A program made the translations under genes and the position numbers. Under the pieces are notes generated by a model that worked only from the letters and a program-made list of their open reading frames with translations, made no database searches and was not told the DNA's origin. This document shows positions 1 to 43,047 of a stretch of 64,000 nucleotides of DNA, one piece after another; the stretch's first letter is position 1; every line of letters starts with the position of its first letter. Source of the stretch: Bacillota bacterium (GTDB lineage Bacteria > Bacillota > Sulfobacillia > Fermentithermobacillales > Fermentithermobacillaceae); contig JAXGPX010000002.1 in NCBI GenBank assembly GCA_040766745.1, positions 317,248-381,247 of the forward strand. The letters run 5' to 3'.

Positions 1-1129
1 GGTTCTCACTATGATCGTATTCAGGCTCATGGTAAGCGGAGATGACGCCTTCGTAGTTTCGCACTACTACTGTGTGTTCGCCCATAGACAGAATGTAATT
101 GGGGTTGAGAGGGATTTTCCCACCACCGCCCGGAGCGTCTACAACATACGTGGGAACAGCAAGGCCTGTGGTATGCCCTCTGAGGTATTCCATGATTTCC
201 AGTCCTTCTGCCACAGTGGTCCTGAAATGCTCAAGCCCCCAGGTAAGGTCACACTGGTAGATGTAATAAGGTTTCACCCTTATTCTCAGGAGCCCTTGGA
301 CCAAATCTTTCATGACATGGGGACAGTTGTTGACCCCTCTTAACAGCACACTCTGATTGCCAAGGGGAATTCCTGCATTGGCCAGGATTGCGCAAGCCCG
401 TTCAGTTTCCGGAGTTATCTCTTTGGGATGGTTAAAATGGGTATTGAGATATACCGGATGGTATTTGGCCAGCATATCAGCAAGTTCCTGGGTTATCCTC
501 TGTGGCATGACCACAGGTGCCCGTGAACCAATCCTAATTATCTCAACATGGGGAATCTGGCGGACCCTGCTCACCACGTACTCTATTTTACCATCTGATA
601 GGGTTAGGGGGTCACCGCCTGAAATGAGCACGTCACGGATTTCCTTGTGCTCCTTGATATACTTAAGCCCCATCTCAATCCGCTCAGTAGGTGCCACCCG
701 GTCTGTTACCCCGACAACTCTCCGCCTTGTACAGTGCCGGCAGTACATAGAACATTGCTCAGTAACAAGAAACAGCACCCTGTCCGGATACCGGTGGGTT
801 AGGCCCGGAACCGGAGAGTCTTCATCTTCGGCCAGGGGGTCAAAGGCTTCCCAGGGAAGCTGCCTAGCCTCAGGCCCTCTTGGGACCGCCTGAAGGCGGA
901 TTGGGCATTTTTCATCGTGAGGGTCTATCAGGCTGGCATAGTAAGGGGTAATGGCCATTCTGACCCTTGAAAGAGCCACGTTCACGCCTTCGATGGCTTC
1001 AGGGCTCAAGTCCATTACCTTTGAAAGAGTCTCAACATCTTCAATGCGATTCTTCCACTGCCAATGCCAATCGTTCCACTGCTCTTCTGTAACATCTTTG
1101 AAAAAGGGTATCTCTTTCCAATGGCGCAA
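1..1129 (-). CDS. kamA: L-lysine 2,3-aminomutase (radical SAM), 5' part of gene; continues beyond window start
   Basis: Hand translation of the minus strand from TTG at 1129 gives (M)RHWKEIPFFKDVTEEQWNDWHWQWKNRIEDVETLSKVMDLSPEAIEGVNVALSRVRMAITPYYASLIDPHDEKCP..., close to the KamA/AblA N-terminus. The segment 1139-1145 on the minus strand reads AAGGAGG, about 10 nt upstream. The frame stays open to position 1, so there is no stop in the window and the ORF is missing from the track. The ATG at 1137 is in another frame and terminates quickly. Confidence 0.8.
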   Translation of the reverse strand, partial: MRHWKEIPFFKDVTEEQWNDWHWQWKNRIEDVETLSKVMDLSPEAIEGVNVALSRVRMAITPYYASLIDPHDEKCPIRLQAVPRGPEARQLPWEAFDPLAEDEDSPVPGLTHRYPDRVLFLVTEQCSMYCRHCTRRRVVGVTDRVAPTERIEMGLKYIKEHKEIRDVLISGGDPLTLSDGKIEYVVSRVRQIPHVEIIRIGSRAPVVMPQRITQELADMLAKYHPVYLNTHFNHPKEITPETERACAILANAGIPLGNQSVLLRGVNNCPHVMKDLVQGLLRIRVKPYYIYQCDLTWGLEHFRTTVAEGLEIMEYLRGHTTGLAVPTYVVDAPGGGGKIPLNPNYILSMGEHTVVVRNYEGVISAYHEPEYDHSEN

Positions 1130-1163: not shown

Positions 1164-2234
1164 CTACCCCTCAAACATCTCTTCCAAAATTCTCCTTACT
1201 GTCTCATCGTTTCTGACCAGGTCCAGAGAGTACTTTGCATGATCCCTGGCATATCCGTTCCCTATTATCAATTCTACATCTGCGCCTACACCTTCGGCAC
1301 CCAAAGCAGCCGCTGTAAAACTTGTGGCCATTGAGAAGAAGTATACTTTTCCGCCTTCTCTGGTGCTGAGGATGGACGCCATTTCAGTACCTGGTATGTT
1401 GACACAGTTTATTGCAAGGTCGGCTTTCTTTCCACCGTTTGAGCCCATAACCTTCTTCATTGTGGAAATTGCATCTCTTGCATCTCCCTGAAGCACAATG
1501 TCGCAAACTCCCAGTCGCTCAAGGCGTTCCCTGGACCTGTTGCTGTGGGCAAGCCCAATAACTTTGCCGGTAGGCCCTGCTTTTTTCTTTGCAACGCTTG
1601 CGCACAGAAGCCCTGACTTGCCGCCGGCGCCAAGGATAAACACTGTATCTCCCGGTTTAACAAGCCTGTCAGTTTGAATGGGGGCCCCTGCCACATCAAG
1701 CACTGCAAGGGAAAGCTTGTCCCCAAGGTCAGACGGAATAACTGAAAATACTCCAGTCTCAAAAATTACTGCAGTTGCTTCAACATCTACCTGATCTTTG
1801 TCAAGGTGCACTTTCTTTACCTTGTGGATCTTAAGCGGTGTCAGGGACAAGGAAACCAGAGTGCATATGCGGTCTCCGACTTTAAGCCCGTCTTTGCCCT
1901 CAACTTTGGGCCCAAATTCCTTAATGCGCCCTAAAAGCATTCCGCCTGAACCAGTAACAGGATTGTGCATTTTCCCCCGCTTGCCAACAATATCCATGAC
2001 TACTGAAGCCACGTAGTCTTCCTTTTCCTGTTCGCTCATGTCAGGTTTGCACCCTGAGACGATTTGCTTAAAACTTGCCGCATCTATGTTTAGGGTCCCT
2101 ACGTCTATTAAAATTTCGTTATCGTAAATTTCAGGAAGATTATCTACCTTCCATGCGGCCTGAGGCAGTACCCCCTCAGGCTCAATCACTCTGTGGGTTC
2201 CGTATGGGCATCCAGGTCTGTATTCTTTGGCCAC
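1164..2234 (-). CDS. kdd: L-erythro-3,5-diaminohexanoate dehydrogenase (lysine fermentation)
   Basis: ORF 1164..2273 (369 aa). The N-terminus VAKEYRPGCPYGTHRVIEPEGVLPQ and the Rossmann GAGGKSG motif are typical of Kdd. The likely true start is GTG at 2234, preceded by GGAGGTG and a 6-nt spacer; the listed 2273 start is TTG with no RBS. It lies 26 nt upstream of kamA on the same strand. Confidence 0.75.
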   Translation of the reverse strand: MAKEYRPGCPYGTHRVIEPEGVLPQAAWKVDNLPEIYDNEILIDVGTLNIDAASFKQIVSGCKPDMSEQEKEDYVASVVMDIVGKRGKMHNPVTGSGGMLLGRIKEFGPKVEGKDGLKVGDRICTLVSLSLTPLKIHKVKKVHLDKDQVDVEATAVIFETGVFSVIPSDLGDKLSLAVLDVAGAPIQTDRLVKPGDTVFILGAGGKSGLLCASVAKKKAGPTGKVIGLAHSNRSRERLERLGVCDIVLQGDARDAISTMKKVMGSNGGKKADLAINCVNIPGTEMASILSTREGGKVYFFSMATSFTAAALGAEGVGADVELIIGNGYARDHAKYSLDLVRNDETVRRILEEMFEG

Positions 2235-2330
2235 TATGAACACCTCCATGTTATTTCGGCTTATGTAATTCAAGTTCGCATCCTTGCCGGTTTCCAGGCA
2301 GCACTATTCTTGGAACCACCTGATCATATA

Positions 2331-2346
2331 AGCAAATATCATGCCA
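2331..2346 (-). promoter_or_regulatory. sigma-54 (-24/-12) promoter candidate for kdd-kamA
   Basis: The minus strand reads TGGCAT-GATAT-TTGCT, which matches the TGGCAC-N5-TTGCW consensus in spacing and in the GG/GC dinucleotides. It sits about 60-90 nt upstream of the kdd start and about 120 bp downstream of the palindrome at 2455-2474. Confidence 0.6.
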
Positions 2347-2454
2347 CTGTAGGATGATGGCCAGCTGTGCTCACCAAATTGAAGGTGCTCCAGCAAAAAG
2401 CATACTCGAATGAATAACGGTATTATCCTGCCTTTCCGGCAGATGCGACAGGAT

Positions 2455-2474
2455 TTCGGCACATATGTGCCGAA
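2455..2474. promoter_or_regulatory. perfect 20-bp palindrome TTCGGCACATATGTGCCGAA; candidate enhancer (UAS) for the adjacent sigma-54 activator
   Basis: Read directly from the sequence. Additional TTCGGCA-like half sites occur near 2434 and 2505. It lies between the divergent kdd operon and the bEBP gene. Confidence 0.5.
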
Positions 2475-2650
2475 TATTTGTCACAAGGCAATCATATTGC
2501 CCAGTTTTCGGCATGTCCACATGGAGGGGACTGCGTGGGGCGGGGCTATCCCGGAGAGGATTGCGCGGGTCCCATCTATTTCGGATGGTTAGTTTGGAAC
2601 GTAATTACCCTGAAGCGTCATGAGCCACAAATAGATTAGGAGGGCGCACT

Positions 2651-4141
2651 TTGGACTTGCTAACGGCTCTTCTTCAAGTGCTTGAAATTGCAAACGAAGG
2701 CATTCACCTGGTAAATGAAGACGGCGTAACTGTGATCTACAACAAAGCTGCCTCAGAATTTGATGGGCTTTCGCCTAACGAAGTTATGGGCAGGCACCTC
2801 CTAGATGTCTTTCCTTCTTTGACCCACGATTCAAGCACCCTCTTAAGGGTCCTAAGGAGCGGAGTACCGGAAATAGCCAGACAGCAAACATTTTCCAACT
2901 ACAAGGGCAAGAAAATCACTACTATTAACTCAACTCATCCAATACAGGACGGCGGCCAAATCATGGGGGCTTGCGAGATTTCCACTGACATAACCAGAAT
3001 CAAGGAAATGGCCGAACGAATCACAGATCTAAGAAAGGAACTCAGAAACAAGGGCCAGGATAGCAGGGAGCAGGAATCAGTCTTGTCCCGAAAATTATAT
3101 ACAGTAGACGATATCATTGGCGAATCGACAGTAATGAGAGATGTCAAGCGACGGGTTTTTCAGGTCGCCCGGAGCCGGTCCAACGTAGTTGTCTGGGGAG
3201 AAACAGGCACAGGAAAGGAACTCATTGTTCAATCTATACATTCGGCTTCAGACAGGGCCGGTTTCCCTTTCGTTCCCCAAAACTGTGCAGCTCTTCCTGA
3301 AACTCTTCTTGAAAGCCTTGTTTTTGGAACTTCCAAAGGCGGGTTTACAGGGGCCCAGGACCGGCCGGGCCTTTTAGAACTGGCATCTGGAGGAACCCTC
3401 TACCTTGATGAAATCGACTCTATGCCACTTGGCCTACAGGCCAAACTCTTGCGGGTAATTCAGGAAAAAAGAGTCCGCAGGCTTGGCGATGTGAGGGAAC
3501 GGCCGGTAGACGTTAGAATTATCGGATCTGCAAGCGTTCCACCGCGGCATGCTGTGGAACACGGAATTCTCAGGGCTGACTTGTACTTCCGGCTTGCAGT
3601 TGTGGAAATAGGATTACCCCCTCTGCGAGAGAGGCGGGAAGATATCCCTCTGCTGTGCTCCCATTTCCTGCAAAAACACAGCAGAAGGCCTGTGCAGGTG
3701 TCAATATCTCCTCAGGTCATGTCTGCATTCCTAGCCTACGATTGGCCCGGGAACGTAAGGGAACTGGAACACGCCATAGAAGGGAGCCTGGCTTTTGCGA
3801 AAGACAATTCTATTGAACTTGATCATATTCCCTGGTCAGTACGGGGCGTTACAGCAGCCACCTGGATGTTCAAGACTAGGGCCAGTACCGGCAGCAAGGC
3901 AAGTTCCGAGATTGAATCGCTCGGTTACGGGGCGCACAATGAAAACACTGATATCTCAAAGCAAGAATCAATCAGAGACCAACTGAGGCTCAGAGAAAGA
4001 AGAGCCGTCGAAGAAGCGCTGAAACAGGCCGGGTCTGTATCTGAGGCTGCCAGAATCCTTGGGATGCCAAGGCAGACACTTCAATACAGGATGAAAATTC
4101 TTGGCATTACCAGGCAAAATCGTCGAAGAAGAACCAAATAG
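2651..4141 (+). CDS. sigma-54-dependent transcriptional activator (PAS sensor + AAA+ sigma-54 interaction domain + Fis-type HTH)
   Basis: The ORF translation contains the Walker A motif GETGTGKE, the GAFTGA motif (FGTSKGGFTGA), the typical ESLVFG..ELFGHEKGAFTGA region and a C-terminal HTH (RILGMPRQTLQYRMKILGI). An N-terminal PAS-like region is present. The start is TTG at 2651, with AGGAGGG 6 nt upstream. Confidence 0.85.
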   Translation: MDLLTALLQVLEIANEGIHLVNEDGVTVIYNKAASEFDGLSPNEVMGRHLLDVFPSLTHDSSTLLRVLRSGVPEIARQQTFSNYKGKKITTINSTHPIQDGGQIMGACEISTDITRIKEMAERITDLRKELRNKGQDSREQESVLSRKLYTVDDIIGESTVMRDVKRRVFQVARSRSNVVVWGETGTGKELIVQSIHSASDRAGFPFVPQNCAALPETLLESLVFGTSKGGFTGAQDRPGLLELASGGTLYLDEIDSMPLGLQAKLLRVIQEKRVRRLGDVRERPVDVRIIGSASVPPRHAVEHGILRADLYFRLAVVEIGLPPLRERREDIPLLCSHFLQKHSRRPVQVSISPQVMSAFLAYDWPGNVRELEHAIEGSLAFAKDNSIELDHIPWSVRGVTAATWMFKTRASTGSKASSEIESLGYGAHNENTDISKQESIRDQLRLRERRAVEEALKQAGSVSEAARILGMPRQTLQYRMKILGITRQNRRRRTK

Positions 4142-4285
4142 GAGAGAAAACAAGTGGGTGTGCCCTGAACTGATACCATACTGCCTTACTCTTCAGGCCA
4201 CACCCATTATATTTTTTCCGGGCCGGTCCGATTTATTCATTGTTCACAAATTAAATTTTAGCCCCGGCATCAATTCAGCACGGAA

Positions 4286-5983
4286 TTACATAGAATCTGG
4301 AGCCGAGATTCCTGCCAACCGCAGAGCATTGGCTAAAACAATCTGGCACAGTCTGGCCAGGTAAAGCCTTGCTGAACTCAGTTCCTTGTCCTCTCCTAAA
4401 ACCCTGCACCTGGTATAGAAAGAGTGAAACGCCGCCGAGACATTCATCATGTATGTGATCAAGCGGTTAGGCTCTCTTGCTGCAGCAATCTCCCGAATCT
4501 CCTCAGGAAAAGCAGCAAGAAGTTTCATTAACTGAATCTCAGATGGATCCCTAAGCAATGGAACCTTTACTTCCTTAGGGCCTGATGCAGGTACATACCC
4601 TTCCTGTCTTGCCTGACGGAATATACTGGCTATTCTTGCGTGGGCATACTGTACATAGTAAACCGGGTTTTCATTTGACTGCAGCCTAGCAAGATCCAGG
4701 TCAAAATCAAGGTGGCTGGAAGGTGCCCTCATCAAGAAGAAGAAACGGCAAGCATCCTTGCCTGCATCTTCCAGAAGTTCATCCATTGAAATGAACTCGC
4801 CGCCCCTCTTGGACATCTTAACAACATCTTTGCCTCTTACAAGCCGCACTGTTTGAGCAATAATCACCTCTAGGACATCGCCTGGATACCCAAGAGCCAT
4901 GAGTCCGGCCCTTAGCCGGTTAACGTAGCCATGATGATCGGGCCCTAGAATATCGATAAGGTGGCTAAAGCCTCTCTTTAACTTGTCTTTATGGTAAGCA
5001 ATATCAGGTGCCAGGTAGGTCATCTCACCGTCAGACTTGACCACAACACGGTCTTTGTCATCGCCAAATTCAGTTGACCTGAACCACAAAGCCCCGTCCT
5101 TTTCATATATGAATTCCCTTTCCCTGAGCTCTTCCACCAGGGCTTCGTGGGCCTTTGTCTCCCGCAAGCTCTTCTCTGAATACCAGGTGTCATACTTCAA
5201 CCCATATTCAAGTAGAGTCTGTTTCTGCTTCTCAATCATGTGAGACACAGCATACCCCTTTAGCCACTCATGCCGCTCGCCGGAAGGAAGGCCAAGAAGC
5301 CGGTCGCCTTCTTCAGAAGCCAGTTGTTTGGCAATGTCCAGGAGATACTCGCCCCGGTAGCCGTTCTCAGGCAGCTGGGCATCTTGGCCAAGAGCCTGCC
5401 TGTACCGTGCCTCAAGGGAATCTGCAAGCAAGTCAACCTGATGTCCTGCGTCATTTACGTAGAACTCTCTGGATACCTGATAACCGCTGGCTTCAAGCAG
5501 CGAAGCAAGGCAGTCGCCTATTGCAGCAGCCCTGGCATTAACTACATTCAATGGGCCTGTAGGGTTTGCGCTGACAAACTCAAGCAAGATACGTTTGCCT
5601 TCGCCATAATCAGTCCTTCCATATAGTGGGCCTTTCTTCCATATCTCTGCCATGGCCTTATCAAGCCATCCGGACCCAAGGAAGAAATTGAGAAATCCCG
5701 GCCCTGCAATATCAACCCTCTGTATCCATGAATCGTCCAGCGAAAGGTACCTTACTATGATCCCTGCAACCGATCGTCCGTCAGATTGCACCTCTCTGGC
5801 CAAAGACATGGCCACGCCTGTAGCGAAATCTCCTTGTTCAGGCCTGGCAGGAGTTTCGATCTTGATTTCAGTTTCTAAATACCCGGGTAAGTCGCCCTTT
5901 TCCTTGGCTTTATATATTGCATCAGAAATTCTGTTAGCAATGTCGTTCTTAACCTGACTCATAATACTGGCACTTTCATCCAT
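4286..5983 (-). CDS. argS: arginine--tRNA ligase
   Basis: 565-aa ORF with the class I aaRS architecture and the typical ArgS C-terminus (...DSM). AAAGGAGA lies 9 nt upstream of the ATG. Confidence 0.9.
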   Translation of the reverse strand: MDESASIMSQVKNDIANRISDAIYKAKEKGDLPGYLETEIKIETPARPEQGDFATGVAMSLAREVQSDGRSVAGIIVRYLSLDDSWIQRVDIAGPGFLNFFLGSGWLDKAMAEIWKKGPLYGRTDYGEGKRILLEFVSANPTGPLNVVNARAAAIGDCLASLLEASGYQVSREFYVNDAGHQVDLLADSLEARYRQALGQDAQLPENGYRGEYLLDIAKQLASEEGDRLLGLPSGERHEWLKGYAVSHMIEKQKQTLLEYGLKYDTWYSEKSLRETKAHEALVEELREREFIYEKDGALWFRSTEFGDDKDRVVVKSDGEMTYLAPDIAYHKDKLKRGFSHLIDILGPDHHGYVNRLRAGLMALGYPGDVLEVIIAQTVRLVRGKDVVKMSKRGGEFISMDELLEDAGKDACRFFFLMRAPSSHLDFDLDLARLQSNENPVYYVQYAHARIASIFRQARQEGYVPASGPKEVKVPLLRDPSEIQLMKLLAAFPEEIREIAAAREPNRLITYMMNVSAAFHSFYTRCRVLGEDKELSSARLYLARLCQIVLANALRLAGISAPDSM

Positions 5984-6022
5984 CCGGGCACATCTCCTTT
6001 CGCAGCAAGAATTCAGCCGCCG

Positions 6023-6901
6023 TCATTTCCCTTCAGGAGTCAGTAGCAAAAGACTCTCTCGTACAACTGCTGCTGCAAGCAGCCCTGTCTGGCCTGTACC
6101 GTCATAAGCGGGGGATACCTCAACAAGGTCAACCCCTACAATATTGTTTCCTGCAAGATACGAAAGGGCATCCAGGAGTTCCTGGGATGTAATACCTCCC
6201 GGCTCAGGAACACCTGTTCCGGGCGCAAAAGCCGGGTCAACCACATCAATGTCTATCGAAAGGTATACAGGGCTTTTGCCTAGCCTGGGTATAATTGACC
6301 GCAGCGGCTCGATTACATTATAGAAATGAACTTCTGAGAGCCCCCGGGTCTCCTGGAGTTCGGCCTCATCAGCCGAACGAATTCCAAGCTGGTATACTCT
6401 GCCCGGGCCCAGCAGTTCTATGACCCGGCGCATAACTGTGCCATGGGAAAACTGTGTTCCGGTAAACCTTGATCTCAAATCAGCATGGGCATCGAACTGA
6501 ATCAGCACAAGATCCGGATACTTCTCAAGCATTGCCTGGACCAGTGGATATGTAATAAGGTGCTCTCCGCCTACTGCCATAAACTTCTGCCCATTATCAA
6601 GCACCTGGTCGGCAGCGGTCTTGATTACAGAAAGCGCCTTTTCCACATTACCCATGGGTAAAACAAGATCCCCTGCATCATAGTAGTTGTCTGCAATCAG
6701 CGTACGCTTTTGCCTCAGAGAAAACTCTTCAAGAGCCATAGACGCTTCCCTTGTTGCAGACGGCCCAAACCTGGTTCCCGGGCGAAACGATGTGGTTTCA
6801 TCCAGGGGAATTCCAAGTATGACGCACGGCGACAAAGGATCTCTGGAAGACCAGAGAAACTTGTCAGGACGTACCCATTCGGTACGTTGGTTGTCTGTCA
6901 A
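6023..6901 (-). CDS. speB: agmatinase (arginase/ureohydrolase family)
   Basis: The ORF 6023..6967 translation shows binuclear-Mn ligand motifs (DAHADL, SIDIDVVDP) and the conserved GGEH. The listed ATG start would overlap speE by 20 nt. An in-frame TTG at about 6901, preceded by GGAGGGG, gives a ~292-aa product of typical size. Confidence 0.75.
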   Translation of the reverse strand: MTDNQRTEWVRPDKFLWSSRDPLSPCVILGIPLDETTSFRPGTRFGPSATREASMALEEFSLRQKRTLIADNYYDAGDLVLPMGNVEKALSVIKTAADQVLDNGQKFMAVGGEHLITYPLVQAMLEKYPDLVLIQFDAHADLRSRFTGTQFSHGTVMRRVIELLGPGRVYQLGIRSADEAELQETRGLSEVHFYNVIEPLRSIIPRLGKSPVYLSIDIDVVDPAFAPGTGVPEPGGITSQELLDALSYLAGNNIVGVDLVEVSPAYDGTGQTGLLAAAVVRESLLLLTPEGK

Positions 6902-6947
6902 TATGTACCCCTCCAGAATGTTTGGCGGTGTTTGGCAACCAGCCGGC

Positions 6948-7826
6948 CTAATCGGTAATACCCACATCCCGCTTTAACTTGGGATTTAGCACAAATACCC
7001 GTTCATGGATTTCAGGTGAATAAAACTTGAGGTTCCACGATTCATCCGGTCTGCGCAAGGGCTTCTTCGGATCAGTCCCTAGGGACCCACACGTAAAGCT
7101 CCACCATCCCCCAGGATAGCTCGGGATAGGAACTGTATAGAGCCCTGTCACAGGAAACACTCCGGCTATCCTTTGATAAATATCTCTGACCAGTTCAGGA
7201 GTGCCAATGGGGCTTTCGGTCTGCGCACATAACATTCCGCCAGGCTTCAATATCTTGGCTATTGCAGCATAAAATTCAGGCACAAAAAGTGCTTCACCGG
7301 GCCCCTCAGGGTCTGTTGAATCAACAATGACCAGGTCGAACCTGTCCCCGGTTGTTGCAACGAACTTAAGTCCGTCTTCAATCAGAACCCGTGCTCTCGG
7401 ATCACTAAATCCTGTATTCCAGCCCGGAAGGTACTGCTTGGAAGCCTCAACCACGTCACCGTCTATATCTACCATAGTGACTTGCTTTATCCCAGGGTGG
7501 CGAAGGGCCTCACGCAAACTCCCTCCATCCCCACCACCTATTATCAAAACATTCTCGGGGTTGGGATGGCTGAACAGCGGTACATGCACAATGCTTTCGT
7601 GGTATATGTATTCGTCTTTCTCAGTGGTCTGAATTGCGTTATCCAGAACCAACATCCTTCCAAATTCGACAGTGTCGAAAATGCACAACTCCTGGAACTT
7701 TGTACGTTTTGTATAGACAACAGACTCAATCTGAACAGATATACGGAGGCCGTCAAGCCAATCTTCAGTAAACCATACCTGCAATAAAGTCCCCTCCGAG
7801 CATAATAGTTCAAAAACCAACGTCAA
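6948..7826 (-). CDS. speE: spermidine synthase
   Basis: 292-aa ORF with the polyamine aminopropyltransferase motifs VLIIGGGDGG and VDIDGDVVE and an N-terminal WFTE motif. Confidence 0.85.
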   Translation of the reverse strand: MTLVFELLCSEGTLLQVWFTEDWLDGLRISVQIESVVYTKRTKFQELCIFDTVEFGRMLVLDNAIQTTEKDEYIYHESIVHVPLFSHPNPENVLIIGGGDGGSLREALRHPGIKQVTMVDIDGDVVEASKQYLPGWNTGFSDPRARVLIEDGLKFVATTGDRFDLVIVDSTDPEGPGEALFVPEFYAAIAKILKPGGMLCAQTESPIGTPELVRDIYQRIAGVFPVTGLYTVPIPSYPGGWWSFTCGSLGTDPKKPLRRPDESWNLKFYSPEIHERVFVLNPKLKRDVGITD

Positions 7827-7951
7827 GCGTCGAAAGGAATTATATCAGAAAAGGATATGGGATAAAACATTAGCAAAGCAGGGGTAGAGGATATGTTGCC
7901 TTGTAGATGAAATGCTGGTAAGCTGAGTTGTTCAGAAAGGAGAAGTGAGAT

Positions 7952-10228
7952 ATGGCAGAGACCCAGGATTCAGTCAAAGAATTCGCCGGTGCGAAGAACT
8001 CTTCCCGTTCCAGGCCCCTGAAGTTGAAAACTCTTCTCCTGGCACTGGTAAAGGCCGGCGTGGCACTGGCTCTTATCTCCGTAACCATTTTTGCCCTGCT
8101 TTTTGTTTTCTTGCCTCTGCCCGAGCCTGCAATTCCCGAGGCAACAAGGATTTATGACATTAACGGGAAGACTGTGTCTTCTCTTTTTGTTGAAAATAGA
8201 GTAGTAGTCCCATTTGATGAGATTCCTGAGAGCCTCAGACAAGCAGTTGTCGCAGTAGAAGACAAGAGGTTTTACAGCCATAAAGGCGTCGATTTCCGTT
8301 CTCTGGCAAGGGCTCTTGCGGCAAACATCAAGGCAGGCGAAGTTGTAGAAGGCGGGAGTACAATAACCCAACAGCTGTCATGGAACCTGTTTTTGACCCA
8401 CGAAAGAACTCTGAAGCGAAAACTACTTGAAGCAATCTACGCACTAAAGCTTGAAATGCGCTATTCAAAGCAAGAAATCCTGGAAATGTACTTGAACGTC
8501 ATATACCTGGGACATGGAACCTACGGGTGTGAGACGGCATCAAAACTTTACTTCGGCAAGCCAGTTAAAGACCTGACCCTGTCTGAGTCTGCCATGATTG
8601 CAGGAATCATTAAAGGGCCTGAGATTTACTCTCCGTATCACAACATGGAACTGGCAGAGAAGAGAAAAACCCTTGCCCTTGATCTTATGGTGGAACAAGG
8701 CAGCATCGATGAGGCCTTGGCAGAAAAGGCCAAGGCAGAGCCTATCAAACTTGCCGGAATGCCCAAGAGCAGTGCCGCCTACTTTGTGGATTTCATCATA
8801 GCCCAGATAAGGCAGGCCAAACCTGAAATCGCAGCCGAGATTTACCGGGGAGGATATGAGATTTTTACTACCCTGGACCTAGACATGCAGTTAGCAGCCG
8901 AAAAAGCATTTTCACGCTACCTCCCTGAAGGGGTTGTAGACTCCAAGGGCATCACTCAGCCTCAGGGTGCCCTGGTAGCAATAGAACCTCTAACCGGGTA
9001 TGTCAAGGCTTTGGTTGGCGGGCGGGATTGGAATGAAACACAGTTGAACAGGGCTTATCAGGTTAGGCGGCAACCTGGATCTGCCTTTAAGGTCTTTTTG
9101 TATGCTGCCGCTATTGATCTTGGACATCCGATCAATGAAACAAGAATCTGCGAACCTGTTGAGTTTCCGGGAAAGTCTCAGGGCGATGTATACAAGCCAA
9201 GGGATTTCGGGTGGCAACCTTACCACTATGAAGCACTGGATATCCGCCAGGCTGTGGCAATATCTGATAACGTAGTTGCAGCCAGGTGGGCATCGGAACT
9301 CGGGCCCTCTAAGATCATTGAATACGCCAGAAAATTGGGCATAAAGAGCCCTTTGCAAGCGAACATACCCCTGGCTTTAGGAGCTTCAGAGGTTACGCCC
9401 CTTGAAATGGCAGCTGCAGGTGCCGCTATTTCTGCTCAAGGGGTGTATGCAGAACCTATTGCCATCCTCAAACTAGTTGACTCAAGAGGCAACGTTCTTA
9501 TAGAGAACAAAGTTCAATCAAAACAAGTGCTCGACCCGGGTACGGCGTACATGCTTACAAGCGTCCTCCGTTCTGTAATAGGCCCTGGAGGTACCGGATC
9601 AGGGCTTCAAGGTTTTCTTGGAAACAGGCCTGCAGCCGGCAAAACGGGAACAAGCGATGACCAGCTGGAAGCATGGTTTGTGGGATATACCAGGGAACTT
9701 TCGTGTGCGGTATATGTAGGGTGGGACGATCGTGATAAGTCCTTGTCAGGCACAGGCGGTGGCGTGGCCGGGCCGGTCTGGGCAGGTTTCATGGGCAGCG
9801 CCCTTTCAGGCAAACCGGTCCAAAATTGGCCAATCCCCGGTGATTTGTCATGGGAGAGGGTCTGCGACAAGACAGGCCGAAGGGCTAATGTAACGTGTTT
9901 CGATTGGCACTATGAACTCTTCAGGGCGGGAACCGGCGCACCTGTCTGCTCTACAAATCATATATTTGAGTTTCTCATGCCCGGATGGCCAGCTTCAGGT
10001 GCTGAAGAGCCTCAGATCAAAAACGTTCCTTACTTCATCCCCCCAGATGCACCTGCAGTAAAACCTGAGGACAAGGAACGTCCTATGTCACCTGATGACG
10101 TTGACATACCCCTGACTGAAGACGAAAACGGCCTTTCGGCCCCCTGGGGCCATGAGGGCCTGCTCGAACCAGATGGCCAAGAGGGCCTTCCAGAACCAGA
10201 GGGTCAAGAGGGCACAACAAATCGATAA
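7952..10228 (+). CDS. class A penicillin-binding protein (bifunctional glycosyltransferase/transpeptidase)
   Basis: GT51 motifs (EDKRFYSHKGVD, GGSTITQQL) and the transpeptidase motifs SAFK and KTGT in the ORF translation. N-terminal TM anchor. The C-terminus is a low-complexity acidic PEGQEG repeat. Confidence 0.9.
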   Translation: MAETQDSVKEFAGAKNSSRSRPLKLKTLLLALVKAGVALALISVTIFALLFVFLPLPEPAIPEATRIYDINGKTVSSLFVENRVVVPFDEIPESLRQAVVAVEDKRFYSHKGVDFRSLARALAANIKAGEVVEGGSTITQQLSWNLFLTHERTLKRKLLEAIYALKLEMRYSKQEILEMYLNVIYLGHGTYGCETASKLYFGKPVKDLTLSESAMIAGIIKGPEIYSPYHNMELAEKRKTLALDLMVEQGSIDEALAEKAKAEPIKLAGMPKSSAAYFVDFIIAQIRQAKPEIAAEIYRGGYEIFTTLDLDMQLAAEKAFSRYLPEGVVDSKGITQPQGALVAIEPLTGYVKALVGGRDWNETQLNRAYQVRRQPGSAFKVFLYAAAIDLGHPINETRICEPVEFPGKSQGDVYKPRDFGWQPYHYEALDIRQAVAISDNVVAARWASELGPSKIIEYARKLGIKSPLQANIPLALGASEVTPLEMAAAGAAISAQGVYAEPIAILKLVDSRGNVLIENKVQSKQVLDPGTAYMLTSVLRSVIGPGGTGSGLQGFLGNRPAAGKTGTSDDQLEAWFVGYTRELSCAVYVGWDDRDKSLSGTGGGVAGPVWAGFMGSALSGKPVQNWPIPGDLSWERVCDKTGRRANVTCFDWHYELFRAGTGAPVCSTNHIFEFLMPGWPASGAEEPQIKNVPYFIPPDAPAVKPEDKERPMSPDDVDIPLTEDENGLSAPWGHEGLLEPDGQEGLPEPEGQEGTTNR

Positions 10229-10294
10229 GGCCCCCTGAATCCAGAGGGCCAATATGAAACCGACAAATGATGCCAAGATTGCTCCGAAGCACGG

Positions 10295-11506
10295 TTACCT
10301 GGTTTCAGATGCAGCTTCGGCCAGAACAACATCAAACTCCAGTGTTTGATCATTTCTGAGTACTTTGATCTTAACCCTGTCGCCTGGCGATTTTTCCGAC
10401 AAAAGGGCAACAAACGTGCCTATATCGTTAACGGAGCGTCCGCCAAATTCAGTAATAATATCGCCCTTCCGAATTCCAGCCTTGGCAGCCGGCCCGCTGG
10501 AAAGGACTTCAACAACATAAACTCCATGGTCTATCTTAACCTCAGGCATGTATAACTTTGCCTCGGCCTTGTCTATAAAACTGACACCTACAAGAGCCCT
10601 GCGTACCTTTCCTGTTTCCATTATCTCTGTAACAATGCGCTTAACCTGGTTAGACGGTATGGCAAAACCCATTCCCTCAACGGCCTGCACATCCAACTTA
10701 GCTGAATTGAGCCCGATAACCTGAGCTTCACTGTTGATTAGTGGGCCGCCGCTGTTTCCAGGGTTGATAACTGCATCAGTCTGAATAAGCCTTACGTAGC
10801 CGTCACCTATACTGAGCACCCGGTCAAGGCCTGAGATAACCCCGGCAGTAACCGATCTGTTAAACTCCATCCCAAGAGGGTTGCCTATGGCGATTGCCAG
10901 CTGTCCCGGCTTTACTTTGTCCGAATCGCCAAATACGGCCGTAGGCAGTTCAGATCCTTCTATCTTGATGACCGCCAAATCAGTGGCCGGATCGGTACCG
11001 ACTATCTTTGCAGCCATAGTACTTCCATCAGCTAGAAATACAGTTAGTTTGCGTGAGTCACCGGATACTACGTGGTTATTTGTGACAATATACCCATCAC
11101 TGGTGATAATGACGCCGGAACCTGATGTATCCCGGATATATTCCCTGCCGAAGAAGTCGTAGGTTGACTTGGTGTTCACAATACCTACAACAGCCGGGCT
11201 GACCTTCTCGGCTGCATCTACAACAATCTGCCATGGGTCTTGACTAACCTGGTTGTTGACAGGTTTTAACAGAGAGAGGGAGTCACTACCTTCAAGAATG
11301 CTTCCCAAAGAGGGGACTGAAAGCTGCAAACCTGCCATTCTGTTAACTATTAGTTGCGGCACTAGGCCTGCAACAAGCAGCCCGCCAATAACAGCCCCCA
11401 CAAGCCCCACTAGCAGGTATGACCACACCTGTGATGCTTTCCGTTTCTTCGGCTCCTTGTAGTTTTGAATTTCATAATGCTCAAAATCCAAAACCCCCAC
11501 CTCCAT
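10295..11506 (-). CDS. HtrA/DegP-family serine protease with C-terminal PDZ domain
   Basis: Trypsin-like catalytic motifs including GNSGGPL. N-terminal TM segment. PDZ-like C-terminal domain. Confidence 0.85.
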   Translation of the reverse strand: MEVGVLDFEHYEIQNYKEPKKRKASQVWSYLLVGLVGAVIGGLLVAGLVPQLIVNRMAGLQLSVPSLGSILEGSDSLSLLKPVNNQVSQDPWQIVVDAAEKVSPAVVGIVNTKSTYDFFGREYIRDTSGSGVIITSDGYIVTNNHVVSGDSRKLTVFLADGSTMAAKIVGTDPATDLAVIKIEGSELPTAVFGDSDKVKPGQLAIAIGNPLGMEFNRSVTAGVISGLDRVLSIGDGYVRLIQTDAVINPGNSGGPLINSEAQVIGLNSAKLDVQAVEGMGFAIPSNQVKRIVTEIMETGKVRRALVGVSFIDKAEAKLYMPEVKIDHGVYVVEVLSSGPAAKAGIRKGDIITEFGGRSVNDIGTFVALLSEKSPGDRVKIKVLRNDQTLEFDVVLAEAASETR

Positions 11507-11678
11507 ACAACTGATTAGTTCATTGATTTAACGGTATTTAGTTCCCACAATAATATATCTATCATACCGTTAATATGAATTTACGAAAGATTGGACAAGA
11601 AGTAACGATAGTATCTTTCCCACGGGGGCCTTCGAGCTGTGTCTTAGAGGCTGAGCTTACCTTGGCAAAACTGAGGTT

Positions 11679-14647: not shown

Positions 14648-16162
14648 CTAAACGCTTTTTATATATTGAACATAAAGGGCAAATTCTAGTCTAATTTTCA
14701 TAATGCGGCACGCCAGAGGGTCCGGATTCAACATGTCGCCAGTAGATGCAAGGGCCCCGGCATGGCAGCCCCCCCCACACAAGTACCTAGCCCAACATTT
14801 TATGCAGCTCTCTTTATTGGGGACACGAGAGTGATAAAACTTTCTGGCTATGTTCTGTCTCTTCAATATGTCAACATGTTTCTGGCCATGTTGTGAAACG
14901 CCAGGCGTGGTATCTGACGGAGAATCCAGTATGGTGCCTAGATTGAAATCCCCTTGTCCCACAAGCTGGTGGCATGGATAAATAGTACCCTCAGGAGTAA
15001 CCGCCAGGTACTCGTAACCGGCTCCGCAGCCTGTTACTCGCCGCTCCCGGCATACACCGCGGTCAAGTCCAAGCTCGAAATGGTAATAATCCATAGGGGC
15101 ATTATTCTTGTAGCAATCTTCCCAGAAAGCCGTAAGCTCAGAGTATGACTCTCTGACAATCGGAAGATCATCTTCGGTAATAGACCAGTCTGCATCTGCC
15201 CCTATTGCCGGTTCCAGAGACATTCTCCTGAAACCAAGTTCATACAGATACCTGGCATCCCTGTGGAAATCGAGATTGCAGCGTGTATAGGTGCCTCTCA
15301 CATAGTAATCCCGTCCGCCTCTAGATTCTACAAGCCTCTGGGCGTTGGCAACAGCAGGCCCATGGCTGAAAGAACCATCTCTGCAGCGCCGCATTTTGTC
15401 GTGAACTTCAGGCCTGCCATCAAGGCTGAGAATTACACTGATATTCCAGTCATTGAGGAAATCAATGATCTCCTTATTTAGCAGAGTGCAGTTAGTCGTT
15501 AGGGTAAATCGAAATTCCTTGCCGTGCCTCGGGCCCTCTTCGGCGGAATACAGAACTGCTTGCTTTACTGTATCAAATGCCAGAAGAGGTTCGCCCCCGA
15601 AAAAGTCCACATCAAGGTATCGCCTGCTGCCTGATGCGCCAATGAGGAAATCTATGGCCTTTTTGGCAGTTTCAGCACTCATGAGCATGGGTTTTCCCCC
15701 GAAACGCCCCTGGGCAGCAAAGCAATACCTGCAAACAAGGTTGCAGTCGTGGGCAATGTTGAGGCACATGGCCTTAACAGACGGTAGAGGTTCATCTATA
15801 GCAGGTTGGGGCATAGTTCCCCCTGGCTGGGTACCGGGGAATAAAAGGCTATTATCCTGGATTTCATCTTTGCCCCATAGTGATTTGCCGGCTTGCAGCT
15901 TTATTTCTTCCCATGCTGCCGCTATGTCCTCCCTAGAGAACGGCGGTGATAACACTGACATTGCTTGGTTCAGCTGGGCTTGTTCGTAGGCATTGTCACT
16001 GAAATGCTGAAAATCTATGCCTTGTTCCGAGCAATAATCAATGACGCCACGTCCTACAGAATCAAGCTTATGCAGTGAGCCGGTTGCTGCATCGTGGGCC
16101 AGGTCTATCCCTTTGATTCTGAAAGTATGAACTTGTTTCCCGTCTGCTACTTTTCCGGGCAT
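14648..16162 (-). CDS. radical SAM/SPASM peptide maturase (SCIFF maturase family)
   Basis: CNLVCRYC (CxxxCxxC) and a C-terminal SPASM Cys cluster (CIKCWARYLCGGGCHAG). It sits immediately downstream of the SCIFF peptide gene. The start is ambiguous: ATG at 16219 (AGGTG RBS) or 16162. Both overlap the peptide gene in another frame. Confidence 0.75.
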   Translation of the reverse strand: MPGKVADGKQVHTFRIKGIDLAHDAATGSLHKLDSVGRGVIDYCSEQGIDFQHFSDNAYEQAQLNQAMSVLSPPFSREDIAAAWEEIKLQAGKSLWGKDEIQDNSLLFPGTQPGGTMPQPAIDEPLPSVKAMCLNIAHDCNLVCRYCFAAQGRFGGKPMLMSAETAKKAIDFLIGASGSRRYLDVDFFGGEPLLAFDTVKQAVLYSAEEGPRHGKEFRFTLTTNCTLLNKEIIDFLNDWNISVILSLDGRPEVHDKMRRCRDGSFSHGPAVANAQRLVESRGGRDYYVRGTYTRCNLDFHRDARYLYELGFRRMSLEPAIGADADWSITEDDLPIVRESYSELTAFWEDCYKNNAPMDYYHFELGLDRGVCRERRVTGCGAGYEYLAVTPEGTIYPCHQLVGQGDFNLGTILDSPSDTTPGVSQHGQKHVDILKRQNIARKFYHSRVPNKESCIKCWARYLCGGGCHAGALASTGDMLNPDPLACRIMKIRLEFALYVQYIKSV

Positions 16163-41231: not shown

Positions 41232-43047
41232 CAGATTGGCTTACTGTATTCTCTGAAGATAACTTCCCGCCTCTGAGCAGAGCAAGAATCACCAGTGCAT
41301 CAGACGGGGAAACTCCGGCATCAAGTGCACGGCCCAAAGATGAAGGCCTGTACTTGTTCAGTTTGTCTACGGTTTCCCGCGAAAGCCCGTTAACACCGGC
41401 CCAATCTATGCTAACCGGAAGCCTCCTCCCAAGGTATCTCTCAAGCCGCCTTGCCTCTCGTTCCTGTCTCTGAATAAATCCTGCATACTTAGCCTCAATT
41501 TCGATTTCAGCCAGGACTTCCTCTGGAAGGGTTTGTAGGCCGTCTACGATCCCAAAAAAGTCTTCAATGCACTGTCCTGGCAATCGCAGAAGATCCTTGA
41601 CGCTACTTCCTGAGACCTTCTCCTCAAGAAGTGCCCTGCCCCTGGCAATAAGGCTTTTTTTAGTGCAAAACCCATGCCATCTGGTATCGGAAACAAGGCC
41701 TACTCTTCTACCTGCAGCAGTAAGCCTCATATCAGCATTTGAGTGCCTGAGCAGAAGCCTGTATTCTGCCCTTGAAGTGAGCATTCTGTACGGCTCTTCA
41801 ATCAGAGTGCTCACAAGGTCATCAAGCAATACACCAATGTATGCTTCCCTTCGTCCAAGTACCAAAGGTTCTTCCCCTTTGATCTTCATAACAGCGTTAA
41901 TCCCAGCCAAAAGCCCCTGGGCTGCGGCTTCTTCATACCCCGAGGTTGCGTTGATCTGCCCGGCAGTAAATAGCCCAGACATACCCTGTACTTCGAAAGT
42001 CGGCAGAATCTGCGACGGTACCAGGTAATCATATTCAATTGCATACCCAGGCCTTGTTATCTGGGCCCTTTTCAGTCCAGGAAGAGTTCTGACCATCTGG
42101 TACTGAACATCTTCAGGCAGGCTGGTAGACAGGCCAAGAATATATACATCTGAACTCTCTTCTGATTCAATTTCAAAGTATATCTGGTGACGGCTCCGGT
42201 TAGGAAACCTCATAATCTTATCTTCTATGGACGGACAATACCTGGGCCCGGTCCCCTGTATGGTACCGTCGAAAAGGGGCGCCCTCTCTATGTTGTTCCT
42301 TATAACCTCGTGGGTCTTCTCATTGGTATAGGTGGAATAGCAAACTTTCTTGTCCCATATTCGTGGAACCGACATAAACGAGAACGCAATTGGCTTATCC
42401 AGGCCGCCTTCAGGCGTAAGCTCATCCCAGGCGATACTGGCCTTGTGTATCCTAGGCGACGTCCCGGTCTTGAACCTGCCAAGGTTAAACCCAAGTCCTC
42501 TAAGTGAAGCAGAAAGCCCTCTGGCTCCCGGCTCGCCCAAAGGCCCGGACTCAATAATTTCTTCCCCTATTACAATCCGGCTCTCAAGATATACACCTGT
42601 ACAGAGAATCACTGCCCTGGAACGAATCTTGCTCATATCTTCAAGAATGACTCCACATGCCTTGCCATCCTCAATCATGACTTCAGTTACCATCCCCTGG
42701 ACCAGTTCAATCCCAACTGTCTCGATCTGCCGCTTCATGTAACGGGAATATGCCTTTTTGTCTATTTGGGCCCTTAGAGATTGGACAGCAGGCCCTTTCG
42801 ATGCATTTAGCAGGCGCATTTCTATGGCGCAATTATCTGCGGCAAGAGCCATTTCACCGCCAAGGGCATCTATCTCAGCCACGATCTGGGCTTTTCCAGG
42901 GCCGCCAATGGCAGGGTTACACGGCATGCCGGCGATATTGGCTTTATCCAGAGTCACCATGGCAACTTTCATGCCAAGGCGCGCCGAAGCCAGGCCTGCC
43001 TCACATGCAGCATGGCCGCTGCCCACGACAACTACATCAAAATCCAT
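41224..43047 (-). CDS. mnmG: tRNA uridine 5-carboxymethylaminomethyl modification enzyme MnmG (GidA)
   Basis: FAD motif VVVVGSGHAACEAG. Start taken at MDFDVVVV (43047). Confidence 0.9.
   Translation of the reverse strand: MDFDVVVVGSGHAACEAGLASARLGMKVAMVTLDKANIAGMPCNPAIGGPGKAQIVAEIDALGGEMALAADNCAIEMRLLNASKGPAVQSLRAQIDKKAYSRYMKRQIETVGIELVQGMVTEVMIEDGKACGVILEDMSKIRSRAVILCTGVYLESRIVIGEEIIESGPLGEPGARGLSASLRGLGFNLGRFKTGTSPRIHKASIAWDELTPEGGLDKPIAFSFMSVPRIWDKKVCYSTYTNEKTHEVIRNNIERAPLFDGTIQGTGPRYCPSIEDKIMRFPNRSRHQIYFEIESEESSDVYILGLSTSLPEDVQYQMVRTLPGLKRAQITRPGYAIEYDYLVPSQILPTFEVQGMSGLFTAGQINATSGYEEAAAQGLLAGINAVMKIKGEEPLVLGRREAYIGVLLDDLVSTLIEEPYRMLTSRAEYRLLLRHSNADMRLTAAGRRVGLVSDTRWHGFCTKKSLIARGRALLEEKVSGSSVKDLLRLPGQCIEDFFGIVDGLQTLPEEVLAEIEIEAKYAGFIQRQEREARRLERYLGRRLPVSIDWAGVNGLSRETVDKLNKYRPSSLGRALDAGVSPSDALVILALLRGGKLSSENTVSQSDA

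Follow-up and report, generated by a model that had tools for sequence, protein, structure and literature searches.

What controls the lysine-fermentation genes kdd and kamA, which lie at the left end of a 64,000-nucleotide stretch of Bacillota DNA (assembly GCA_040766745.1, contig JAXGPX010000002.1, positions 317,248 to 381,247; hereafter the window)? Lysine fermentation yields acetate, butyrate and ammonia and is one of the main sinks for amino acids in anaerobic digesters, sediments and guts. Control of amino-acid catabolism by sigma-54 together with a PAS-type activator is well established in Firmicutes, and the fermentations of proline, ornithine, leucine, arginine and gamma-aminobutyrate (GABA) are already known to be sigma-54-controlled there. 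A preliminary description of the window, made by a model from the letters alone, proposed such an arrangement for lysine: a -24/-12 promoter before kdd, a palindromic upstream activator site (UAS) and a divergent gene for a PAS-containing bacterial enhancer-binding protein (bEBP). The comparisons reported here indicate that the upper lysine-fermentation operon, kdd-kamA-kamB-kamC-kamD-kamE, is very probably controlled from this region as a sigma-54-dependent unit. The principal features of the region in the window are as follows.

2331-2346, minus strand: predicted sigma-54 (-24/-12) promoter, TGGCATGATATTTGCT
1164-2234, minus strand: kdd (L-erythro-3,5-diaminohexanoate dehydrogenase), 356 aa, GTG start at 2234
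1-1129, minus strand: kamA (L-lysine 2,3-aminomutase), first 376 codons, continuing past the left edge of the window
2651-4141, plus strand: enhancer-binding protein gene (the activator), 496 aa, TTG start, ribosome-binding site (RBS) AGGAGGG at 2638-2644

A conserved, predicted sigma-54 promoter upstream of kdd

The reverse complement of 2331-2346, TGGCATGATATTTGCT, agrees with TGGCAC-N5-TTGCW at 10 of the 11 specified positions, and its GG and GC dinucleotides are correctly spaced, 10 nt apart. The near-consensus element that the preliminary description placed here, in the orientation of kdd, is therefore real. It ends 96 nt before the GTG start of kdd, from which we predict a transcription start near 2320 and a 5' untranslated region (UTR) of about 85 nt; this was judged consistent with the 60-90 nt originally estimated. 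TGGCA-N6-TTGCW is matched twice in the 64 kb, both strands considered, where 0.52 matches are expected, and in intergenic DNA only 2331-2346 fits the -24/-12 pattern. The other match, at 41664-41679 (TGGCATGGGTTTTGCA), was considered as a second sigma-54 promoter and set aside as chance since it lies inside a coding region. The open reading frame that holds this perfect match is long and, by its translation, mnmG/gidA-like.

Conservation of the element was assessed at two depths. Four relatives from the clade of the window (loci L001 to L004) have activators 89, 82, 71 and 64% identical to that of the window. Their synteny is the same, with the activator divergent from kdd-kamA-kamB-kamC(-kamD) and flanked on its other side by argS, an agmatinase gene and speE. 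The spacer between kdd and the activator gene ranges from 253 to 743 nt in these loci and is mostly unalignable, having diverged with insertions. TGGCAYG-N4-TTGCW is kept in all four, in kdd orientation and 69-158 nt before the kdd start; the alignment of orthologous upstream regions that had been proposed as a check on the promoter finds the -24/-12 element in every window-clade relative.

For the broader comparison, 80 kdd loci from many phyla were collected by Kdd alignment from GTDB contigs, one genome per species, giving 84 with L001-L004 added. Operon genes and activator homologues were placed on these loci by tblastn. Activator homologues, 37-63% identical to that of the window, adjoin kdd at 16 of the 80 GTDB loci, all of them labelled Bacillota/Firmicutes or clostridial, and nearly all are upstream of kdd in the same orientation. 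TGGCA-N6-TTGC occurs within 400 nt of kdd at every one of the 20 loci with an adjacent bEBP gene, compared with only three of the 64 others, which include representatives of Bacteroidota, Thermotogota, Betaproteobacteria and Actinomycetota. At two of these three exceptions kdd lies at a contig edge, and in one of the two (L034) the upstream DNA encodes the C-terminal helix-turn-helix (HTH) of a truncated activator gene. Across Bacillota orders the activator gene accompanies kdd, whatever its other neighbours.

Candidate upstream activator sites

Upstream of the sigma-54 promoters of distant loci a head-to-head 16-bp dyad recurs, TGCC-N8-GGCA, with the consensus TGCCGAAATTTCGGCA. In its strict form the motif is found eight times in 7 kb of promoter-upstream DNA, where 0.5 occurrences are expected from 1.15 Mb of locus sequence. 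The motif was chosen post hoc, after inspection of the data, so that the only unbiased tests of it are the two that we ran on held-out sequence for that reason.

In the first of these, a matrix built from 13 sites, all from distant loci, was used to scan the whole window (about 64,000 positions). The matches in the spacer between kdd and the activator gene, together with the palindrome of the preliminary description, are listed here without strand.

2498-2513: candidate upstream activator site 1 (best), TGCCCAGTTTTCGGCA, 20.8 bits, rank 1 in the window
2285-2300: dyad match in the kdd leader, TGCCGGTTTCCAGGCA, 14.4 bits, rank 2 in the window
2468-2483: candidate upstream activator site 2, TGCCGAATATTTGTCA, 12.3 bits, rank 5 in the window
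2446-2461: candidate upstream activator site 3 (weak), CGACAGGATTTCGGCA, 8.0 bits, rank 22 in the window
2455-2474: perfect 20-bp palindrome TTCGGCACATATGTGCCGAA, at the junction of sites 3 and 2

Three of the five best matches in 64 kb therefore fall in this one 417-bp spacer. Site 1 is 152-167 nt upstream of the -24 TGG, and 138 nt separate it from the bEBP start; its score was reached in only 0.05% of shuffles of the region, and it is conserved in L001-L004. Site 2 reads TGACAAATATTCGGCA in the orientation of kdd, and its core, AATATTCGGCA, is unchanged in all five window-clade spacers, as no other block is. A second conserved block of this clade, ATGCCGAAA...GGC, is found 30-50 nt further from the promoter than AATATTCGGCA. 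Site 3 mirrors site 2 within a 42-bp imperfect dyad (2444-2485), their centres being 22 bp apart. Two additional TTCGGCA half-sites had been reported near 2505 and 2434. The former is exact, at 2507-2513, and is part of the best dyad; the latter reads TTCCGGCA, with one extra base, and is consequently not a true copy.

The second held-out test used loci fetched through second-tier activator homologues, none of which had contributed to the matrix. Symbiobacterium terraclitae (L087) and a further Symbiobacterium-type locus (L088) have two sites each, scoring 19-23 bits and located 30-130 nt upstream of TGGCACG-N4-TTGC. This sigma-54 element lies 45-51 nt before kdd, and unrelated genes intervene before the activator gene, at a distance of 2.7-3.7 kb. 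Thermosediminibacter oceani (L086) encodes a 48%-identical activator at 6001-7422 and keeps the argS neighbourhood; no kdd-kam operon, sigma-54 promoter or dyad is present within 6 kb of it.

Phylogenetic footprinting thus supports the proposal that promoter, upstream sites and divergent PAS-bEBP form one unit, since the promoter is kept, it co-occurs with the bEBP gene, and a motif containing TTCGGCA recurs upstream of such promoters.

Two further signals among the dyads were discarded. The palindrome was flagged by a scan for intrinsic terminators, but on that strand it does not follow the end of any gene. An intragenic matrix match (AGCCTTGTTTTCGGCA-like) in the activator genes of relatives encodes a conserved ESLxFG peptide and is explained by coding constraint. 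The spacer of L003 (5258-5700) has a peculiarity of its own, about 250 nt of A/G-rich low-complexity sequence (GAACGAA/ACAAGC-like) between dyads and promoter, and its kdd leader contains tandem GGTTTACAGCTA-like units; both the A/G-rich stretch and the tandem units are absent in the other relatives.

A model for the control of the operon

The sequence elements are present, conserved and co-occurring across Bacillota, and from them we infer that the activator binds DNA and that transcription depends on sigma-54 in vivo, as well as the start site and the ligand. RNA polymerase with sigma-54 would bind 2331-2346, on the minus strand, as a closed complex unable to open unaided. The HTH_8 domain of the activator would bind two or three of the dyads (2498-2513, 2468-2483 and, weakly, 2446-2461), 100-167 bp upstream. 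A signal sensed by the PAS domain would release the activator; given the pathway under control, this may be lysine, beta-lysine or a pathway intermediate. The activator would then form an AAA+ ring, loop to the promoter, touch sigma-54 through its GGFTGA loop and open the complex by ATP hydrolysis, with transcription beginning near 2320 and running through kdd-kamABCDE.

Other modes of control were sought in the leader and its surroundings. No Rfam family matches 2100-2800 at E <= 1, which leaves no riboswitch candidate there. A structured leader was also rejected, the 90-nt kdd leader folding no better than shuffled sequences (z = 0.29).

Alternative readings of the region

Several observations count against reading the region as a sigma-54 control unit. 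Besides the post hoc choice of the dyad motif, the p-value for co-occurrence of promoter and adjacent activator (Fisher p = 1.6e-16) overstates the independence of the loci, which are phylogenetically related, although the pattern is unambiguous despite their kinship. The second-ranked match of the matrix, 2285-2300, falls within the predicted 5' UTR of kdd, downstream of the promoter at about +20 to +35 from the predicted start, and is not conserved even in L001, whose activator is 89% identical. Its function is doubtful: it could be due to chance, or could be a lineage-specific roadblock or feedback site. The sigma-54 contact loop of the activator is GGFTGA, not the canonical GAFTGA. No RpoN-box peptide is encoded in any frame of the 64-kb window, so that an rpoN gene in the genome is assumed. 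Finally, in two sister loci from the Fermentithermobacillaceae, L006 and L008, nothing in the 350 nt upstream of the kdd promoter scores 10 bits or more, and in their lineage the dyads could be mainly autoregulatory operators.

This last point leads to the alternative that survives best, namely that the TGCC-N8-GGCA sites, palindrome included, are mainly autoregulatory operators, kdd being activated through other contacts or through none of them. In L006 and L008 the genes argS, activator and kdd follow one another on a single strand. The dyad pair (TGCCGAATATTnTGCC and nGCC-N8-GGCA) precedes the activator gene by 28-41 nt and is separated from the kdd promoter by about 1.5 kb, including the whole of that gene; in the window the pair has the same order and orientation with respect to the activator gene. 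Since the window dyads lie between divergent genes, and those of the sister loci directly upstream of the activator, they probably do autoregulate the activator gene as well. As an account of their main role, however, autoregulation seems unlikely. At 13 distant loci the motif follows the activator gene and stands 59-197 nt ahead of the sigma-54 promoter of kdd, L087 and L088 have it beside the kdd promoter with the activator gene 2.7-3.7 kb away, and in Candidatus Formimonas warabiya (L009) three sites precede the sigma-54-like promoter of thiolase-kdd. Because so many loci place the dyads near the kdd promoter, beyond or far from the activator gene, we argue that they are genuine upstream activator sites. 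The two roles are compatible, not mutually exclusive.

Comparison of 2446-4141 of the window with L006 (5263-6836) and L008 (6473-7957) shows only the activator gene and its upstream dyad pair to be inverted. Through the inversion the distance between the dyads and the kdd promoter shrank from about 1.5 kb to 100-167 bp. No convincing inverted repeats that could explain it were found flanking the activator gene. It is conceivable, if somewhat doubtful, that the enhancer module moves together with the activator gene and acts on the promoter whatever its distance and orientation. If both layouts function, they would constitute a natural experiment in which kilobase-range enhancer action has been rewired by a single-gene inversion in Bacillota.

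A second alternative concerns the palindrome, which might be a single-dimer site in its own right, for the activator or another regulator, with the dyad an artefact of overlapping half-sites. The palindrome is perfect and is unique in the window even when three mismatches are allowed, no shuffle having given a match; its position, 2455-2474, is exactly as first described. The half-site TTTCGGCA is, moreover, identical under both models, and both arms are retained in the window, L001 and L002. Yet the arms are 6 nt apart in the window and L002 but 5 nt apart in L001, and L003 has a degenerate copy of one arm where L004 lacks it, while all five retain the 16-mer TGMC-N8-GGCA, of which the left arm is part. 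In addition, the tail-to-tail layout of the palindrome is found at no distant locus, whereas the head-to-head TGCC-N8-GGCA is found at nearly all. We consider a separate palindromic site improbable. The palindrome can be understood as the tail-to-tail junction of two dyads, being composed of the right half of 2446-2461 and the left half of 2468-2483. The original proposal of upstream sites in this position is thus upheld, with the 16-bp dyad and not the palindrome itself as the likely unit of recognition.

Very improbable is the last alternative, a fortuitous -24/-12 match with kdd-kamA transcribed from a sigma-A promoter and the activator serving other genes such as argS-speB-speE: a sigma-70-like TGGACA-17-TATGAT does occur on the minus strand at 2519-2491, the Thermosediminibacter oceani homologue is found beside argS with no kdd operon nearby, and the label 'arginine utilization regulatory protein', given by JGI to homologues, points to arginine or polyamine targets, but sigma-70-like matches are below chance (two found, 3.3 expected), the -10 of the match in kdd orientation is lost in L001, every related locus keeps the -24/-12 element, the window has no other intergenic sigma-54 pattern, and the activator gene travels with kdd across Bacillota orders.

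The activator protein

The domain architecture first read from the translation, PAS followed by AAA+ and HTH, is corroborated by Pfam. PAS_4 covers residues 15-116 (about nt 2693-2998) and Sigma54_activat (PF00158) residues 155-320 (about nt 3113-3610; 194 bits), and the C-terminal part comprises AAA_lid_14 and then HTH_8 at residues 445-482 (about nt 3983-4096). In the translation the Walker A (GETGTGKE) and Walker B (DEID) motifs are intact. The sigma-54 contact loop, which had been given as GAFTGA, actually reads GGFTGA (nt 3338-3355) and keeps the F and T of the canonical sequence. Where the loop could be located in orthologues it is GGFTGA in 31 and GSFTGA in two; in the next tier of homologues 39 have GSFTGA, 22 GGFTGA and two GAFTGA. 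GGFTGA or GSFTGA is the norm of the family at this position.

A first tier of homologues, 57-100% identical and all from uncultured Bacillota, is followed by a drop to 52% or less. The nearest named relative, at 64%, is from Candidatus Fermentithermobacillus carboniphilus. Solved structures (NifA, ZraR, FleQ, NtrC1) match the activator only at the generic AAA+ core. Many homologues carry the JGI label mentioned above. The best NCBIfam model is that of PrdR (NF041552), but the match, at 333 bits, is so far under the cut-off of 795 that the activator is not PrdR. Downstream of the activator gene lies one further feature, which is probably a bidirectional terminator closing the unit.

4155-4206, no strand: hairpin (15-nt arms, 93% complementary) in the gap between the bEBP gene and argS, whose convergent stops are at 4141 and 4286

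Genes of the operon

The identities originally assigned to kdd and kamA hold, both products exceeding NCBIfam equivalog cut-offs. Kdd scores 246 bits against NF052381 (cut-off 200), and KamA 565 bits against TIGR03820, the lysine 2,3-aminomutase equivalog (cut-off 525), with the Pfam domains Radical_SAM and LAM_C. The RBS of kdd, GGAGGTG at 2241-2247, is invariant in five relatives. The database gene call for Kdd of the window (P0121) has 369 residues, starting from an upstream TTG at 2273. Kdd orthologues are 355-357 residues long and GGAGGTG stands 6 nt before the GTG at 2234, so that this call is probably 13 codons too long.

Genes beyond the left edge of the window were read from L005, a Logan-assembled contig whose proteins are 100% identical to those of the window and which reaches past that edge. 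There the kamA product has 442 residues, with the same start codon as in the window, TTG at 1129-1127, the neighbouring ATG being out of frame. In kamA orthologues the aligned start codon is TTG, ATG or GTG, with AAGGAGG some 8-10 nt upstream. The TTG start proposed for kamA is correct, given the agreement of the L005 gene call with the start position kept in orthologues.

The gene order on L005 is kdd-kamA-kamB-kamC-kamD-kamE, followed by rpoE, the gene for the RNA polymerase delta subunit. It follows that kamD and kamE, which had been expected past the window edge, are indeed present, after two reactivase genes. KamB, KamC, KamD and KamE, all from this contig, also exceed their NCBIfam equivalog cut-offs. 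The pathway of lysine fermentation is completed by Kce (3-keto-5-aminohexanoate cleavage enzyme) and Kal (3-aminobutyryl-CoA ammonia-lyase). Neither is encoded in the operon as read on L005, the region to which our examination for them was confined.

Relationship to known systems

The closest published parallel is in Bacillus thuringiensis HD73, where, as described in PMC4428206 citing Zhang et al. 2014 (J Bacteriol 196:2934), a -12/-24 promoter of kamA is activated by the PAS-bEBP KamR (HD73_2539), on the evidence of sigL and kamR mutants. Both systems appear to place kamA under a sigma-54 promoter with a neighbouring PAS-bEBP, kamA being the second gene of the operon here. They differ in several respects. 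By the account given there, kamR is transcribed in the same direction as kamA, whereas the window activator is divergent from kdd-kamA. The kamA locus of that account is without kdd and kamDE, while the operon of the window is the anaerobic fermentation route kdd-kamABCDE. Beta-lysine has a different fate in B. thuringiensis as reported there, one that is sporulation-linked and also driven by sigma-K. The window activator is likened to KamR through its published description, not through sequence orthology.

RocR-type activators of Bacillus and PrdR of Clostridioides difficile share the PAS-AAA+-HTH architecture of the window activator, with no receiver domain, but differ from it in target operon and UAS motif. 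The fermentation of ornithine is the direct analogue of that of lysine, employing a B12 aminomutase, its reactivase and a diamino-acid dehydrogenase. Its regulation is included in the survey of Nie, Dong and Yang 2019 (PMC6615313), which defined 39 groups of EBPs in Clostridiales from 57 species, and in which OrdR controls ord-ortBA-oraSEF-orr. As with OrdR, a sigma-54 promoter and an adjacent EBP with its own UAS motif precede an amino-acid fermentation operon. The text of that survey and one of its supplementary files contain no group for lysine, kamA, kdd or aminomutase. Fifteen of its EBP groups use TGT-N10-12-ACA, in contrast to the TGCC-N8-GGCA of the kdd-linked activators. The lineages of the latter (Fermentithermobacillia, Symbiobacteriaceae, Tissierellales, Peptococcaceae and others) are largely outside its 57 species.

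A 2025 survey places lysine 2,3-aminomutase among the sigma-54 targets enriched in Bacilli, and Francke 2011 has nothing relevant to sigma-54 control of lysine fermentation. A full-text literature search pairing diaminohexanoate, aminomutase or 'lysine fermentation' with sigma-54 returned nothing on kdd or kamDE. The sigma-54/EBP regulon of the lysine-fermentation operon is previously uncatalogued and is conserved across several Bacillota orders, while the type of switch is well known.

A possible wider regulon

With a sigma-54 promoter, TGCC-N8-GGCA sites and a PAS activator, the regulon can be defined for a wide range of Bacillota and its members predicted, such as a LysO-type transporter and a thiolase in Formimonas. 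The activator is a candidate sensor protein for lysine or beta-lysine. Lysine joins the set of amino acids whose fermentation is under sigma-54; this leaves the understanding of such control unchanged and will be no surprise to specialists, but should be useful for annotation.

The Formimonas locus, L009, has the activator gene inside the operon, between kamB and kamD. Its thiolase-kdd is preceded by dyads at 6497, 6519 and 6577 and by TGGTATGGATTTTGCA at 6666, a sigma-54-like element at 4384 precedes a LysO-family transporter gene, and further dyads are found at 14765, 16607 and 16884 (regions of interest 4384-8000 and 10135-11514). From its sequence, this layout looks like a multi-operon regulon.

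A second, unrelated type of activator is found before kdd, together with a strong sigma-54 promoter, in L034 (380-530) and L050 (7400-7775). It is 37% identical in L050 and has the C-terminus ...RKAAKAIGISQ.... Its repeats are of the ATCGGTTCA type, inverted in L034 and direct in L050. The unrelated activator and the different repeats suggest that sigma-54 has been recruited independently to the same operon.

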